DNA from: Escherichia coli
Lineage (GTDB): Bacteria > Pseudomonadota > Gammaproteobacteria > Enterobacterales > Enterobacteriaceae
Direction: 5' to 3' (one strand)
DNA: 64,000 nucleotides
Assembly: GCF_003018255.1 (NCBI RefSeq)
Contig: NZ_CP027440.1
Below are positions 56,281 through 64,000 of this stretch, piece by piece (the stretch's first letter is position 1; every line of letters begins with the position of its first letter). The notes under the pieces were generated by a model. That model saw only the letters and a list, made by a program, of their open reading frames with translations. It made no database searches and was not told where the DNA came from. Position numbers and translations under genes: made by a program.

Positions 56281-56634
56281 ATGTCATTTCTGTTACCCAT
56301 TCAACTGTTCAAAATTCTTGCTGATGAGACCCGTCTGGGCATCGTTTTACTGCTTAGCGAACTGGGAGAGTTATGCGTCTGCGATCTCTGCACTGCCCTC
56401 GATCAGTCGCAGCCCAAGATATCCCGCCATCTGTCATTGCTGCGTGAAAGTGGGCTATTGCTGGATCGCAAGCAAGGTAAGTGGGTTCATTACCGCTTAT
56501 CACCGCATATTCCAGCATGGGCGGCGAAAATTATTGATGAGGCCTGGCGATGTGAACAGGAAAAGGTTCAGGTGATTGTCCGCAACCTGGCTCGACAAAA
56601 TTGTTCCGCAGACAGTAAGAACATTTGCAGTTAA
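56281..56634 (+). CDS. arsR: Arsenical resistance operon repressor ArsR
   Basis: 117 aa, ELCVCDL As(III)-binding motif in the HTH region. Confidence 0.93.
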   Translation: MSFLLPIQLFKILADETRLGIVLLLSELGELCVCDLCTALDQSQPKISRHLSLLRESGLLLDRKQGKWVHYRLSPHIPAWAAKIIDEAWRCEQEKVQVIVRNLARQNCSADSKNICS

Positions 56635-56688
56635 AAAATTTAGCTAAACACATATGTATTTTCGCATGTGTTTTATCCGGGAGGCATT

Positions 56689-57978
56689 ATGTTACTGGCA
56701 GGCGCTATCTTTGTCCTGACCATTGTATTGGTTATCTGGCAGCCGAAAGGTTTAGGCATCGGCTGGAGTGCAACGCTCGGCGCAGTACTGGCGTTAGTTA
56801 CGGGCGTGGTCCATCCGGGTGATATTCCGGTGGTGTGGAATATCGTCTGGAACGCGACGGCGGCGTTTATTGCCGTCATTATCATCAGCCTGCTGCTGGA
56901 TGAGTCCGGCTTTTTTGAATGGGCGGCGCTGCACGTCTCACGCTGGGGCAATGGACGCGGTCGCTTGCTGTTCACCTGGATTGTCCTGCTCGGTGCTGCC
57001 GTTGCAGCTCTGTTTGCCAATGATGGCGCGGCGCTTATTTTGACACCGATTGTCATCGCCATGTTGCTGGCTTTAGGGTTCAGTAAAGGCACTACGCTGG
57101 CGTTCGTGATGGCGGCCGGATTCATTGCCGATACCGCCAGCCTGCCGCTTATTGTCTCCAACCTGGTGAATATCGTTTCCGCAGATTTCTTTGGCCTCGG
57201 CTTTCGCGAATACGCATCGGTGATGGTGCCGGTGGATATCGCCGCAATTGTTGCCACGCTGGTGATTTTGCATCTCTATTTCCGCAAAGATATTCCGCAG
57301 AACTACGATATGGCGCTGCTGAAATCTCCCGCAGAAGCGATTAAAGATCCTGCCACCTTCAAAACTGGCTGGGTTGTTTTACTGTTTCTGCTGGTGGGAT
57401 TTTTCGTCCTGGAACCGCTCGGCATTCCGGTCAGCGCCATTGCGGCAGTGGGCGCGTTGATATTATTTGTCGTCGCTAAACGCGGTCATGCGATTAATAC
57501 GAGTAAGGTGCTACGCGGTGCGCCCTGGCAGATTGTCATCTTCTCGCTCGGCATGTATCTGGTGGTTTATGGCCTGCGCAATGCCGGACTAACGGAATAT
57601 CTTTCTGGCGTACTCAACGTGCTGGCGGATAATGGCCTGTGGGCCGCGACGCTCGGCACCGGATTCCTCACCGCCTTCCTCTCTTCTATTATGAACAATA
57701 TGCCGACGGTACTGGTTGGCGCGTTGTCCATTGATGGCAGCACGGCATCTGGCGTTATCAAAGAAGCGATGGTTTATGCCAACGTAATTGGCTGCGATTT
57801 GGGGCCGAAAATTACCCCGATTGGTAGCCTGGCGACGCTGCTCTGGCTGCACGTACTTTCGCAGAAGAATATGACTATCAGCTGGGGATATTACTTCCGT
57901 ACAGGGATTATCATGACCCTGCCTGTGCTGTTTGTGACGCTGACTGCGCTGGCGCTACGTCTCTCTTTCACTTTGTAA
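56689..57978 (+). CDS. arsB: Arsenite efflux pump ArsB
   Basis: Start at [22 protein letters not shown], 429 aa, multi-TM. Confidence 0.92.
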
Positions 57979-57990
57979 TGAGATATTGAT

Positions 57991-58416
57991 ATGAGCAACA
58001 TTACCATTTATCACAACCCGGCCTGCGGCACGTCGCGTAACACGCTGGAGATGATCCGCAACAGCGGCACAGAACCGACCATTGTCTATTATCTGGAAAC
58101 CCCACCGACGCGTGATGAACTGGTCAAACTCATTGCCGATATGGGGATTTCCGTACGCGCGCTGCTGCGTAAAAACGTCGAGCCGTATGAGGAACTGGGC
58201 CTTGCAGAAGATAAATTTACTGACGATCGGTTAATCGACTTTATGCTTCAGCACCCGATTCTGATTAATCGCCCGATTGTGGTGACGCCGTTGGGAACTC
58301 GCCTGTGCCGCCCTTCAGAAGTCGTGCTGGAAATTCTGCCAGATGCGCAACAAGGCGCGTTCACCAAGGAAGATGGCGAGAAAGTGGTTGATGAAGCGGG
58401 TAAACGCTTGAAATAA
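57991..58416 (+). CDS. arsC: Arsenate reductase ArsC (glutaredoxin-coupled)
   Basis: 141 aa, MSNITIYHNPACGTSRN catalytic Cys motif. Confidence 0.93.
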   Translation: MSNITIYHNPACGTSRNTLEMIRNSGTEPTIVYYLETPPTRDELVKLIADMGISVRALLRKNVEPYEELGLAEDKFTDDRLIDFMLQHPILINRPIVVTPLGTRLCRPSEVVLEILPDAQQGAFTKEDGEKVVDEAGKRLK

Positions 58417-58454
58417 AGCGGCGATATCCACTGCCCATAGTTGGTAAAGTGCGC

Positions 58455-58505
58455 TTTGTTTATGTCGGATGCGACGCTAACGCGTCTTATCCGACCTACA
58501 AAACC
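58455..58505. repeat. REP element
   Basis: tgtcggatgcgacgctaacgcgtcttatccgacctaca. Confidence 0.7.
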
Positions 58506-58538
58506 GTGCATGGCATGAAATCTGTAGCGCGTAGCGCA

Positions 58539-58835
58539 TCAGGCAATTTTGCTATTTACGCAGCACTCCTCGCGTAAGAATTCAATTATCGCTTCCAGCA
58601 TTGCGTATTGCGAAACACACATCAGCGTTCGACTCTCACGGTTTTGTTTGACCAGCCCTACCGATACCAGTGCTGAAATATGGTGACTGAGTGTAGAGCC
58701 GGGTATCCCAAGCTGCTTTTGCAACTCACCGACCGGCAACCCTTGTTCCCCGGCTTTGACAAGATGTTTAAATATGAACAAACGGGTCGGGTGACCTAGC
58801 TCTTTCAGCGCTTTAGCGACTTCTTCCAACTGCAT
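58539..58835 (-). CDS. ArsR/SmtB-family transcriptional regulator with a C-terminal Cys cluster
   Basis: 98 aa from MQLEEVAKALKELGHPTRLFIFKHL (winged HTH); lacks the CVC motif but has C-terminal MCVS ... REECC cysteines; strong Shine-Dalgarno; divergent from the permease. Confidence 0.7.
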   Translation of the reverse strand: MQLEEVAKALKELGHPTRLFIFKHLVKAGEQGLPVGELQKQLGIPGSTLSHHISALVSVGLVKQNRESRTLMCVSQYAMLEAIIEFLREECCVNSKIA

Positions 58836-58941
58836 ATGATCCCCCTCTGTCTGGTTGATATTTCGATAATACCAGAAATATCTTGATCTGAATTTCATTT
58901 CGATTATTCTGGAAATATAGATTTATTCAATGAGGTTATGT

Positions 58942-59943
58942 ATGAGTAGTTGGCTTGCGATGCTGCAAGATGCCACAGAGATGTTTGTGTTTCTCGCCGT
59001 CGAGCTTTCTTTGCTGTTTATAGTGATTAGTGCCGGTGTGAGCCTGATAAGACAAAAGGTGCCAGACCATAAAATCCAGCAGATGATGGGGGCAAGAAAA
59101 GGGAAAGGCTATCTCCTGGCTGCTCTGTTGGGAGCCGTCACCCCGTTCTGTAGTTGCTCGACAATCCCTATGTTACGTGGATTGTTATCAGCGAAAGCCG
59201 GGTTTGGTCCGACCCTCACTTTTTTATTTGTTTCCCCATTACTTAATCCCATTATCGTCGGGTTAATGTGGGTGACCTTTGGCTGGAAAGTTACCTTGTT
59301 GTATGCGATTATCGCCGCCGGCGTCTCCGTACTTGCCAGTATTATCCTCGATTCTCTGGGATTTGAACGTCATATCATTGCCAGTAAAAGCTCATCAGCA
59401 AATTGTTGTGCTCCAGCCAAAACTTCGCCGGGGACGACATATACGCCAATAAAAGTGAGTTGCTGTAGTCCAGCGGCTAAAGCCATTGAGAAACCTGTAG
59501 TAAACTGTTGCAGTACCAAAGCTGTGGTAAGTATTAATCCCATAAAACTAGCCACCAAAGATGCGTTGCAACAGTTTAAAGATGTACTGCCATATCTTTT
59601 GTTAGGGGTATTAATAGGCTCTTTTATTTATGGCTTTATTCCCTCAGAGTGGATTGCCGCTCATGCAGGGGCAGATAATCCCTTCGCCATCCCATTGAGC
59701 GCCGTTGTCGGTATTCCGCTATATATCCGGGCAGAGGCGGTTATCCCTCTGGCATCTGTTCTGATGACAAAAGGAATGGGTCTGGGAGCATTAATGGCAT
59801 TAATCATCGGCAGTGCCGGCGCAAGCCTGACGGAAGTGATATTACTTAAATCAATGTTCAGAATACCGATGATAGTTGCATTCCTGACGGTTATATTAGG
59901 TATGGCTATCTTGATGGGCTATTTGACTCAAATGCTATTTTAA
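58942..59943 (+). CDS. ArsP-like permease (COG0701/DUF318) with TPFCSCS motif and Cys-rich loop
   Basis: About 333 aa, multi-TM; VTPFCSCSTIPMLRG motif typical of ArsP-type organoarsenical permeases; central loop CCAPAKTSP ... VSCCSPAAK ... VNCCSTK. Confidence 0.6.
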   Translation: MSSWLAMLQDATEMFVFLAVELSLLFIVISAGVSLIRQKVPDHKIQQMMGARKGKGYLLAALLGAVTPFCSCSTIPMLRGLLSAKAGFGPTLTFLFVSPLLNPIIVGLMWVTFGWKVTLLYAIIAAGVSVLASIILDSLGFERHIIASKSSSANCCAPAKTSPGTTYTPIKVSCCSPAAKAIEKPVVNCCSTKAVVSINPIKLATKDALQQFKDVLPYLLLGVLIGSFIYGFIPSEWIAAHAGADNPFAIPLSAVVGIPLYIRAEAVIPLASVLMTKGMGLGALMALIIGSAGASLTEVILLKSMFRIPMIVAFLTVILGMAILMGYLTQMLF

Positions 59944-60523
59944 ATAGATGCCAGCAGTAAACTATAAGGAGCATTGTGAGTGCCTTATCCTTCTGAGTAG
60001 AAAATCATAGATAGGATAATCCTTAAAAATCACAAATAACTTAACTAATGCTTTGAGAATGATGACGGATCCGTCAGTAAGTTATCAATCGACAATCACC
60101 ACGCAATCATGCTTCTCTGACATTTTATCGGAGAAGCAATGTCTCTTTGTTTCAGTGCTATCCCCCCTTTTAAAGGGCAGATTTCAGTCGCCAATACAAC
60201 ACATTTTTAAATACACTTTAACCTGGTTCATTATTACACATCTAAAACATCACAAAAATATCACTTCACACACTATCGGTGAACATCATAACTTTTTAAA
60301 ATGAGCGCTTTTTGATAGTTGTTAACGTTTTCCTTTACGATACTATCACTGCCCTTTTTTTATACACAAATATTACCGGGTGGAAATGAAAGGGAAGTTA
60401 AAGGTAATTATATCAGGAAGATATGACGCATTGTGTTTATTTCCGCGTAGAAGAAAATCCATTCCTGCTCTAATTCTCCGATTTACAAAAATTTAGCGAA
60501 ATAGATGAACAATAAGGAATGTT

Positions 60524-61747
60524 ATGTCAATTGACTTTACCCCATGTATGATAAATACATATCACGGCGATATTTATAACCGCACAACAGATACCGACAA
60601 TGTTAAAACACCAGACACACCGAAGTGGCCTTGCGATAATTGGGAAGAACAACAACCCATTAATTCCACATTCTCTGGAGAAGGATATACCTCTGATCAA
60701 TATGATTTAGCGCAATACCAACTTCAACAAATTAATGCGTGCCACACGAACACTACATATACAAATGCAGACTACTCAAAAGTTGTGGCTCAACTTGTAA
60801 GTCTTATTACTAACATTGAAACGATAAGTTCGACACAACTTACGCAACAGACACAATCAATACTTAATCAGATTAATAACATTAGATACGAAAAAAACAA
60901 AAGTGCTGAATATCGAATCATTGTTGTCGCTAATCCTAAACCCGACAAGGCAATCATAACTAAAATTAGCGTAGAAGAGGGAATACCAGTAAGATTCAGT
61001 GTCCAAACCATGTTTTCAGATACTAATTTTATTACTGAACAACGAGCTGACTTACCGACTAATATAAAAGATATTCAAAGCCTGTATCAAAAAATGACGA
61101 AGTTATATATTGAACACAGTGAAAATAAAAACAGGATGAAAGTCTTTGCTGGAACCAACTTTATTGATTTCAATGTGACAGGACAGGACCTTTCCGGGTT
61201 CGTTCTAACCTTGTCAAGGTTTTATTTCGAAGATCTACTTAATATAAATTTCACTGACGCAAATTTAGGTGACACTATTTTTTCACATAAAGAACACCCT
61301 ACCCCAAAATTATATAAAGACGAACAATATCTTGACAAACAAATCGAAGGTTTATTTTCAACATTATTAACCATTAATGACAACTTTTTACGAGCAAAAG
61401 CGGAAATTGCTTCGACAATAATTAAATTCTTAGAGGCCAGGATAACCAATATTTCATACAATGACATATTAAAATATCAGCAAGAATTCAAAAAACAATG
61501 TTATAAGCAAGTTAAAGCCTTTACGACACTCTCCCGATACAATAAAATTCAAACATGGGCAGAAATGTCTGAATATCAATTCGAAGTATTTCAATACGAG
61601 ACGCTTAACCCAAAAAAAATGTCATACGCACCTTATTTAAAGAGATCGCTACCTGATGAAAAAACTATAAATTATGGGGTGGAAATAGAAACACCAACTG
61701 GCAAAAGAATTCGCTTATTAAATCATTACCAGAATATAATCCCATAA
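60524..61747 (+). CDS. yhiS: YhiS-like protein, apparently intact (uncharacterised, AT-rich, pentapeptide-repeat-like segment)
   Basis: 407-aa uninterrupted ORF between ars and slp; low GC; periodic segment [35 protein letters not shown]. Confidence 0.6.
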
Positions 61748-63302: not shown

Positions 63303-64000
63303 TTATGCAGTAACGACTTCCGGTATCAGCGAAGCAATTTGCTTACGCCATTGCGCTTGCTCCTGTTCGCCTTCTGTACGTTGACCATAAAGTTGCGCTA
63401 TCTGCGTACCATCATGGGCAAACAATTCCAGACTGGTTACGTAGCCATCGCTGGTCGGTTTACGGGTAACCCAGGCTTCAGCAATGCTCTCTTCTAATAG
63501 ATGAAGAGTAAACGTCGGGTTGAAAATATTCAGCCAACCTTTCATTGGCACCACTTTTTCTACCACACCAGTGAAAATCTGTACGCAGCCACGGTTGCCA
63601 ACAAACACCATGATTTCATTGCCATCCTGCTGTGCAGATTCAAGAATTTGCGCCAACGCACTGTTGGATACTTTGCAGGCCAAATCATCTGCCACCAGAT
63701 TGAACGCCTGTTGGCGCGTCAGGTTGTGGCGCTTGAGCAACGTAAAAAACTGATGAACGTCGGTCATCGCCCGCCACTCTTGCTCGACCACACTGGCATC
63801 GGCTCGCGTTTGAACAACTGGCGCATCAACGGCTTTTAACTCAAGCGGCATATTCTCATCGGCGATAAACCGTGCCAGAAGCTCACTCCATGCCGCCATA
63901 TCGGTATTGTCGGTGGCATAAACTTTTAGTAATGCATCGCCCTGATGATCAAAGAACTGAATACTCTGGCGTTCGCCACGAGTCGTATTTTCTTTAATGT
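63303..64000 (-). CDS. chuS: Haem-degrading/utilisation protein ChuS (HemS family), C-terminal part; 5' end beyond window
   Basis: Frame is open to the window edge; product FFDHQGDALLKVYATDNTDMAAWSELLARF ... resembles ChuS/HemS/ShuS; position after dctR as in chu-positive E. coli. Confidence 0.6.
   Translation of the reverse strand, partial: IKENTTRGERQSIQFFDHQGDALLKVYATDNTDMAAWSELLARFIADENMPLELKAVDAPVVQTRADASVVEQEWRAMTDVHQFFTLLKRHNLTRQQAFNLVADDLACKVSNSALAQILESAQQDGNEIMVFVGNRGCVQIFTGVVEKVVPMKGWLNIFNPTFTLHLLEESIAEAWVTRKPTSDGYVTSLELFAHDGTQIAQLYGQRTEGEQEQAQWRKQIASLIPEVVTA

Follow-up and report, generated by a model that had tools for sequence, protein, structure and literature searches.

Divergent SpArsR-type regulator and ArsP_1 permease genes beside arsRBC in Escherichia coli: a predicted methylarsenite-responsive efflux module

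What is sensed and exported by the two divergently transcribed genes that lie directly after arsC in an Escherichia coli chromosome? The pair was found in a 64,000-nucleotide stretch of E. coli DNA (contig NZ_CP027440.1 of assembly GCF_003018255.1), referred to here as the window, in which the gene order is gor, dinQ, arsR, arsB, arsC, regulator, permease, yhiS, slp, dctR and chuS. An initial annotation of this stretch had described an atypical ArsR-type regulator and an ArsP-like permease, had viewed them together with arsRBC as a composite locus for inorganic and organic arsenicals, and had not settled on a ligand. Orthology of the regulator to SpArsR of Shewanella putrefaciens 200 now predicts that the ligand is methylarsenite, MAs(III). 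The favoured reading, to which we give a probability of roughly two in three, is that the module consists of a MAs(III)-responsive SpArsR-type repressor that would control an exporter of trivalent organoarsenicals.

The two genes are annotated by RefSeq in NZ_CM128590, a record from an E. coli strain from Mali that is 100% identical over window positions 58400-60520, where they are labelled WP_001175589 ('ArsR/SmtB family transcription factor', 98 amino acids) and WP_001562250 ('permease', 333 amino acids). The SpArsR-type ArsR/SmtB repressor gene (58539-58835, minus strand, 98 codons plus stop) starts with an ATG at 58835 that has a GGGGGA ribosome-binding site ahead of it, and the call is supported by the RefSeq coding sequence, the HTH_20/HTH_5 and HTH_metalloreg matches, the identity to SpArsR and the match to PDB 6J05. 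The PF03773 permease gene (ArsP_1, TC 2.A.119; 58942-59943, plus strand, 333 codons plus stop) starts with an ATG at 58942 preceded by a GAGG ribosome-binding site and is supported by the RefSeq coding sequence, Pfam, the identity to the orthologue of Shewanella sp. ANA-3 and an AlphaFold2 model. The initial coordinates located both genes, although the permease had been started at 58930, four codons upstream of the annotated ATG. A 119-residue regulator frame starting at 58898 was rejected, as it would cross both of the operators described below and conflicts with RefSeq and with the orthologue alignment.

Profile searches of both proteins, which the initial annotation had proposed, placed the permease in ArsP_1 and the regulator in the ArsR/SmtB-like group, with Pfam HTH_20 detected at 2.4e-14, HTH_5 also detected and a score of 61.9 bits against the NCBIfam model HTH_metalloreg (cut-off 55). 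The regulator is without the CVC site and has Cys73 (in MCVS) and Cys91-Cys92 (in EECC), as had been described. For comparison with SpArsR, the coding sequence of that protein (Sput200_1227) and the 222-bp promoter of arsP (Sput200_1226) were taken from the supplement of PMC12124457, a biosensor paper of 2025, and two base drop-outs in the SpArsR text, a product of PDF extraction, were repaired by means of the reading frame and the ANA-3 orthologue. The reconstructed SpArsR has 105 amino acids, and its Cys83, Cys101 and Cys102 agree with the published numbering. The E. coli regulator is 58% identical to it (53 of 92 residues, ungapped, E 3e-41), and Cys73, Cys91 and Cys92 align with SpArsR Cys83, Cys101 and Cys102. 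Judged by its sequence, the regulator is an orthologue of the characterised methylarsenite sensor SpArsR.

The number of cysteines at the C-terminal end bears on the choice between methylated and inorganic arsenic. AfArsR of Acidithiobacillus ferrooxidans binds As(III) via Cys95, Cys96 and Cys102, and SpArsR, in which the third cysteine is absent, has been reported as MAs(III)-specific through the pair Cys101/Cys102 (PMC13236881; PMC11868830). AfArsR is also the closest solved structure to the E. coli regulator (PDB 6J05, E 4.7e-10), and the alignment of YLTENCCHGT in AfArsR with FLREECCVNS in the regulator places the CC pair on Cys95/Cys96. The regulator tail, CCVNSKIA, contains no cysteine beyond the pair, that is, no equivalent of AfArsR Cys102. 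The Cys91-Cys92 codons (58560-58565, minus strand) encode what is predicted to be a two-coordinate MAs(III) site, located where helix alpha5 ends, and the Cys73 codon is located at 58617-58619 on the same strand; the CC pair and Cys73 are each invariant in 60 of 60 members of the regulator family. In an independent E. coli reporter with SpArsR and the arsP promoter, derepression reached 73% of its full extent with 1 uM monomethylarsenite, MMAs(III), and 9% with 50 uM As(III), with no response to the dimethylated DMAs(III) or to the pentavalent MMAs(V) and DMAs(V) (PMC12124457). MAs(III) rather than As(III) is predicted as the ligand of the E. coli regulator because its site is a cysteine pair and not a C-terminal triad. 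The C-terminal cysteines noted in the initial annotation were thus present, while their comparison to triad-type sensors did not hold and the pair resembles that of SpArsR.

The operator sequences also connect the two systems. Within the intergenic region of about 106 bp an imperfect palindrome occurs twice, with 37 nt from one start to the next. Operator site 1 (58857-58882, with the core TTTCGATAATACCAGAAA at 58861-58878) is formed by the inverted repeat GATATTTC/GAAATATC and overlaps a promoter-like site of the permease gene, and operator site 2 (58897-58918, with the core TTTCGATTATTCTGGAAA at 58898-58915) is a direct repeat of site 1, 82% identical, that overlaps a promoter-like site of the regulator gene. 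The pattern TTTC-N10-GAAA was present, often twice, in 48 of 54 orthologous regulator-permease intergenic regions, where about one was expected from composition-preserving shuffles. The S. putrefaciens arsP promoter also has TTTC-N10-GAAA, and a 25-nt stretch that it has in common with operator site 1 is identical at 24 positions (96%). A consensus scan gave a sigma-70-like promoter candidate for the permease gene (TTGATA, 18-nt spacer, TATCTT; 58855-58884, plus strand) and one for the regulator gene (TTGAAT, 16-nt spacer, AATAAT; 58903-58930, minus strand), so that there would be one such site per direction, each overlapped by an operator. These promoter calls are tentative because the scan performed no better than chance in this region.

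The permease matched Pfam ArsP_1 (PF03773) at 1.9e-52 over residues 13-334 and model positions 3-293 of 294, and has 51% identity to its counterpart in ANA-3, the orthologue of S. putrefaciens arsP. The motif TPFCSCS is present as reported initially, and the codons of its Cys70-Ser71-Cys72 (59149-59157, plus strand) mark a predicted in-membrane thiol site that is invariant in alignments A1 and A2 and lies beside a helix break in the model. TPFCSCS is invariant in the permease clade, partly by construction since the peptide served as the scan pattern, and is also found in Helicobacter and Campylobacter homologues that were retrieved independently of that scan. The initial annotation had taken this motif as characteristic of organoarsenical permeases, which had to be abandoned: TPFCSCS is a signature of the whole PF03773 family, including the SO_0444 Cu/Zn exporters and SaoE, between which CSC is the most conserved motif (Haft preprint). 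Because CSC is shared with these two groups, the motif marks the family and not an organoarsenical substrate. A full-text literature search for the peptide TPFCSCS gave no match.

A second cysteine-rich feature is the variable central loop of residues 143-199 (59368-59538, plus strand), which is predicted to be disordered and has the three CC pairs noted initially, at residues 155-156, 174-175 and 189-190. Residues 161-187 have a predicted local distance difference test score (pLDDT) below 50 in the AlphaFold2 model, and the loop is positively charged (nine K+R against two D+E). Among relatives the loop ranges from 31 to 105 residues with up to 10 cysteines and 0-4 CC pairs, and cysteines were kept at every locus where it could be delimited. 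Its length shifts by whole cysteine-containing segments (L002-L004, P0041-P0050), giving permeases of 333 to 377 residues, and it varies even among close plasmid alleles of E. coli and Salmonella whose transmembrane core is nearly invariant.

The AlphaFold2 model of the permease, built with 51 sequences, has a mean pLDDT of 86.6 and a predicted template modelling score of 0.81 and is confident except in the loop. It consists of two repeats, each with a pair of half-length helices broken at TPFC (67-70) or YIR (261-263), and has further helix breaks at residues 101-102 (SPLLNP) and 294-295 (AGAS). Cys70 sits in the break between model helices 55-66 and 71-83. A search of the PDB with the permease sequence returned no relative. 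A topology of 4+4 helices, all transmembrane, was rejected, as the two most positively charged loops would fall on opposite sides of the membrane. In an alternative topology, drawn from the AlphaFold2 model and from matches to DASS/ArsB structures, residues 55-83 and 249-276 were treated as re-entrant hairpins, and the K/R-rich first loop and the second, central and KSMFR loops would in consequence all be located on the cytoplasmic side. From this model we infer that the CSC pair is at the tip of a hairpin in the middle of the membrane and that the cysteine-rich loop is cytoplasmic.

The pairing of regulator and permease is conserved well beyond E. coli. A scan for permease relatives with one genome per species, in which 80 loci of roughly 50-74% identity were kept, covered genera including Aeromonas, Shewanella, Vibrio, Photobacterium, Pseudoalteromonas and Ruegeria, with orthologues spread across the Gammaproteobacteria. 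A regulator orthologue adjoins the permease gene in 55 of the 80 loci, and is divergent and upstream in 47; no other neighbour is conserved across lineages. In Shewanella sp. ANA-3 the regulator is 95% identical to SpArsR, and there, as in S. hafniensis, the orthologous pair is located inside an arr/ars arsenic island with arsJ, gapdh, a phosphatase-like gene, a second PF03773 paralogue, arsC, a CVC-type arsR and a second arsC on one flank and a glutathione-synthetase-like gene, arrB, arrA, arsD and arsA on the other. Flanking ars genes were also found in Aeromonas tecta (arsJ-gapdh-arsA-arsD), at two Endozoicomonas loci (arsD-arsA) and in Buttiauxella, where the pair is flanked by arsRBC in an arrangement different from that of E. 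coli.

Several other genes were observed around these relatives. A lookalike of eukaryotic-type glutathione synthetase, recognised by eye from its sequence, is near the permease gene in five loci (L043 7087-8649, L033 7120-8553, L029, L062 and L067), and in the two Shewanella arsenic islands the glutathione-synthetase-like gene is directly downstream of the permease gene. The second PF03773 paralogue of the Shewanella islands (L043 2922-3959; L033 2646-3892) is distant, at 29% identity, and adjoins a small thioredoxin-like gene and a phosphatase-like gene; a run of phosphatase, thioredoxin-like and arsP genes has been described in ICEpMERPH (PMC6947025). In 10 loci, mostly of Vibrio (for example L034 4894-5484), the gene immediately past the regulator gene encodes a sigma-70/ECF-like (extracytoplasmic function) protein with a cysteine-rich C-terminal tail, ending in ECCSFSFDKQGRMTDCNQNGSSCDKC.

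Taken as a mechanism, the favoured reading would operate as follows. A dimer of the 98-residue repressor would bind the two TTTC-N10-GAAA operators over the divergent promoters and keep both genes off until MAs(III) bound Cys91-Cys92 and released it; reduced roxarsone and further trivalent organoarsenicals would probably act likewise. MAs(III) requires only two thiol ligands, which the pair at the end of alpha5 could supply, and inorganic As(III), which requires three, should induce poorly with the third C-terminal cysteine absent. The induced 333-residue permease would then export the arsenical, with the substrate bound by Cys70-x-Cys72 at and just after the half-helix break of the first repeat, by way of an inverted-repeat, hairpin-containing (elevator-like) fold that is presumably driven by the proton-motive force. 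The variable loop of cysteine pairs may capture substrate on the cytoplasmic side. Together with the adjacent arsRBC, the locus would cover inorganic as well as methylated or aromatic arsenic. Gene structure, family membership, orthology to SpArsR, operator conservation, genomic contexts and purifying selection come from the present analysis, whereas the MAs(III) selectivity of SpArsR and its control over the arsP promoter come from published work. The regulator half of this reading draws on orthology, matching cysteines and the shared operator, and the permease half on family membership, on the pairing with the regulator across genera and on the name arsP given by the Rosen laboratory to the Shewanella orthologue; we infer the substrate, export direction and energy coupling of the permease, as well as the sidedness and role of its loop.

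A number of observations weigh against this reading. An identity of 58% to SpArsR would allow a shift in ligand, and the invariant Cys73 could act as a third ligand and give a response to As(III). An additional cysteine 3-7 residues past the CC pair (mostly 5-6, as in the AfArsR-like CCxxxxC) was found in 20 of the 60 regulator family members, mostly in Vibrio and in some Shewanella (for example L034 5441-5734, L039, L050 and L062), and with about a third of the family in this form selectivity would be expected to vary within the clade. The division into two-cysteine and extra-cysteine forms suggests that selectivity is switched naturally between MAs(III) and As(III). The permease is 31-35% identical to the ArsP-like proteins of Helicobacter and non-jejuni Campylobacter that were obtained by a look-up of ten representative clusters, and other PF03773 members export Cu/Zn. 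The promoter scan found six sites in the region where 5.3 were expected.

Genomic context weighs in the same direction. The co-occurrence with ars that the initial annotation had wished to see surveyed was limited to 6 of the 80 species-level loci with recognisable ars neighbours, with the pair alone elsewhere, and no ars genes were found near the cassette on the four plasmids examined. Because so few loci have ars neighbours, the pair is an autonomous cassette: some ars islands have recruited it, but it is not an obligate part of them. The composite locus proposed initially stands in so far as the pair adds a predicted organoarsenical function to arsRBC, although adjacency to ars is exceptional and the cassette is alone in most genomes and plasmids.

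The possible third ligand raises the main alternative, a second inorganic As(III)/Sb(III) system, in which Cys91, Cys92 and Cys73, possibly of the other subunit, form a three-sulfur (S3) site and the permease exports As(III), perhaps with ArsA as a partner in other species. The complete conservation of Cys73 and the family members with an AfArsR-like third cysteine are consistent with this, as are the arsD-arsA genes that adjoin the permease gene in 5 of the 80 loci and a proposed ArsP-ArsA coupling mentioned in a review. It is nonetheless distinctly unlikely, given that SpArsR with the same three cysteines responded only very weakly to As(III) (PMC12124457), that an ArsR and an ArsB for As(III) are already encoded at the E. 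coli locus and that As(III) was not a substrate of C. jejuni ArsP, according to the review.

The family membership of the permease is shared with exporters of soft metals, and the pair could be read as a Cu, Zn, Cd, Hg or Ag efflux system like the SO_0444/Shew_3410 branch, controlled by a thiolate-sensing ArsR/SmtB protein. The top NCBIfam match of the permease is indeed the SO_0444 Cu/Zn efflux family (NF033936), which has the CSC motif in common with it; cysteine-rich loops suit soft metals, and the literature describes a DUF318 gene as important under zinc stress in Shewanella loihica. The match is however only 109.3 bits against a cut-off of 300, ten clade relatives also fail at 102-134 bits, and the partner of the zinc-linked Shewanella gene is ZntR rather than an SpArsR-type ArsR. 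No metal-resistance neighbour recurs among the 80 loci and the regulator is an orthologue of a characterised MAs(III) sensor, which makes the soft-metal alternative highly improbable. Membership in SaoE (NF040736) was rejected as well, with 85.6 bits for the permease against a cut-off of 325 and ten clade relatives far below it.

The second and third PDB matches of the regulator were YgaV (3CUO) and BigR (3PQJ), and the C-terminal cysteine of YgaV aligns with the CC pair, which would suit a thiol-redox or reactive-sulfur sensor of the BigR/YgaV type together with an exporter of sulfur compounds or electrophiles. This alternative, to which an NCBIfam BigR match (NF040642) of 38.5 bits also points, is most improbable; the score lies so far under the cut-off of 155 that membership was rejected. 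BigR-type sensors use a cysteine arrangement between alpha2 and alpha5, unlike the vicinal CC pair. AfArsR and SpArsR are nearer relatives, and rhodanese, SQR and persulfide-dioxygenase genes were not recurrent among the neighbours of the 80 loci.

The pair was present in 2223 of 5426 complete E. coli genomes (about 41%, with at least 80% of the 2.1-kb query covered) and, as the initial annotation had suspected, is missing from K-12, where MG1655 has yhiS after arsC. A blastn comparison of the K-12 arsC-yhiS spacer with the window located the missing segment at 58609-60214, a stretch that takes in all of the permease gene, the operators and the regulator gene except for its 3' end. The spacer has retained the decayed last 22 codons of the regulator gene, ending in YTMLDAIIGISRREYCVNSKIA and a stop (L092 3300-3376, corresponding to window 58539-58608), and the cassette was therefore lost from K-12 by a deletion of about 1.6 kb and was not simply never present. 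Between the window and an E. coli lineage about 4% divergent, the permease had a ratio of nonsynonymous to synonymous substitution (dN/dS) of 0.08, the regulator had no nonsynonymous and six synonymous changes, and both operators were unchanged; both genes are under purifying selection in E. coli. That the pair is a decaying, non-functional remnant, as its absence from 59% of complete genomes and the decayed K-12 copy might suggest, is scarcely credible in view of these intact frames, the substitution pattern, the conserved operators and the maintenance of the cassette on about 1000 plasmid records.

Homologues in PLSDB amounted to 1001 records, including 466 from Escherichia and 198 from Salmonella, and 639 were conjugative. 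The four plasmids examined, with IncF, IncN, IncX1 and IncC replicons, all have the same divergent two-gene cassette, with IS26, IS1 or ISL3 as a neighbour; one of the copies is near tet(M). Surveillance papers label plasmid copies 'arsR' and 'arsP', apparently by annotation alone, and a literature search turned up nothing on the chromosomal pair of E. coli. A joint proposal covering loop, fold and spread is that the loop is an ArsD-like built-in cytoplasmic metallochaperone that captures trivalent organoarsenicals and hands them to Cys70-x-Cys72 by thiol exchange, that the fold is a miniature ArsB/DASS-like elevator and not a TOG-type bundle, and that IS26-flanked plasmid copies spread in livestock Enterobacteriaceae under arsenical feed additives. 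This combination is unlikely to be correct as a whole.

Other features of the window surround the cassette. The canonical arsR-arsB-arsC operon (56281-58416, plus strand; ArsR matching NCBIfam PRK10141 at 229.8 bits, and annotated by RefSeq) is a neighbour outside the cassette, and a terminator-like stem-loop was found by consensus scan downstream of the permease gene (60110-60138, plus strand). Between arsC and the regulator gene is a REP-like (repetitive extragenic palindromic) element at 58463-58499, and a 38-bp stretch at 58463-58500 matches other sites in E. coli chromosomes at 100%. An intact yhiS frame of 407 amino acids without an NCBIfam match is located at 60524-61747; the K-12 copy of yhiS is a pseudogene that IS5 interrupts, and some RefSeq records mark the gene as frameshifted. 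The gene chuS (63303-63899 and beyond) follows dctR, with chuA also present in the matching strain, and the source strain thus carries a heme-uptake locus that K-12 does not have at this position.

The kind of system described here is already known from SpArsR with arsP and from C. jejuni ArsP, and what is new are the chromosomal and plasmid members of E. coli, which have had generic annotation only. About 41% of complete E. coli genomes and around a thousand enterobacterial plasmid records carry the module under such labels, and orthology to a characterised methylarsenite sensor provides them with a specific function that can be tested. Arsenic work is usually done in K-12, which has arisen by deletion at this locus and for that reason does not represent the species in its handling of organoarsenicals. 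On plasmids the cassette lies next to IS26 and is carried along with tet, bla and further resistance genes. Should the predicted function prove correct, organoarsenicals such as methylated arsenic from gut and soil microbes or roxarsone-type feed additives would be candidate co-selecting agents, and spread in livestock, if true, would link organoarsenical use to the co-selection of multidrug-resistance plasmids. The conserved operator with two-cysteine and three-cysteine regulators offers a natural series for MAs(III)- or As(III)-selective biosensors. The K-12 deletion, the plasmid spread, this cysteine series, the variable cysteine loop and the predicted ArsB/DASS-like fold add a modest further interest.

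Compared with known transporters, the permease is much smaller than ArsB and the DASS transporters (333 against 430-540 amino acids) and, at 6-11% identity to ArsB and to DASS/IT-superfamily elevator transporters (for example PDB 10tp, 6wu1 and 8r33), has no detectable sequence similarity to them; published bioinformatics assigns ArsP to the TOG superfamily. SO_0444 and SaoE share PF03773 and the CSC motif with the permease, whereas their regulators and genomic contexts differ. C. jejuni ArsP (TC 2.A.119.1.1), which exports MAs(III) and trivalent roxarsone, Rox(III), is of the same Pfam/TCDB family, of similar size and with a conserved cysteine pair. To our knowledge it is the only ArsP with transport data, and its two conserved cysteines are reportedly required for transport. 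The ArsP-like genes retrieved from Helicobacter and Campylobacter are paired with other ArsR types, with CVC in H. pullorum and a different cysteine pattern in C. showae.

Among known regulators, AfArsR has a CC pair at the end of alpha5 that aligns exactly, through Cys95/Cys96, with that of the E. coli protein. AfArsR differs in its third ligand, Cys102, and in its response to As(III), whereas the E. coli regulator ends six residues past the CC pair with no further cysteine. In relation to SpArsR, the E. coli regulator does not have the N-terminal extension of 10 residues and diverges in its C-terminal tail, the intergenic region spans about 106 bp in place of about 222 bp in the S. putrefaciens system, and the pair stands beside arsRBC or alone on plasmids, with a function that is predicted, in contrast to the Shewanella arr/ars island. 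The likenesses extend to both genes: SpArsR/arsP of S. putrefaciens 200 also consists of adjacent regulator and permease genes, which are divergent in the 95%-identical ANA-3 counterpart, the ANA-3 arsP orthologue has TPFCSCS and a CC-rich central loop as in the E. coli permease, and the same three regulator cysteines and the same operator motif (24 of 25 nt) are found in both systems.

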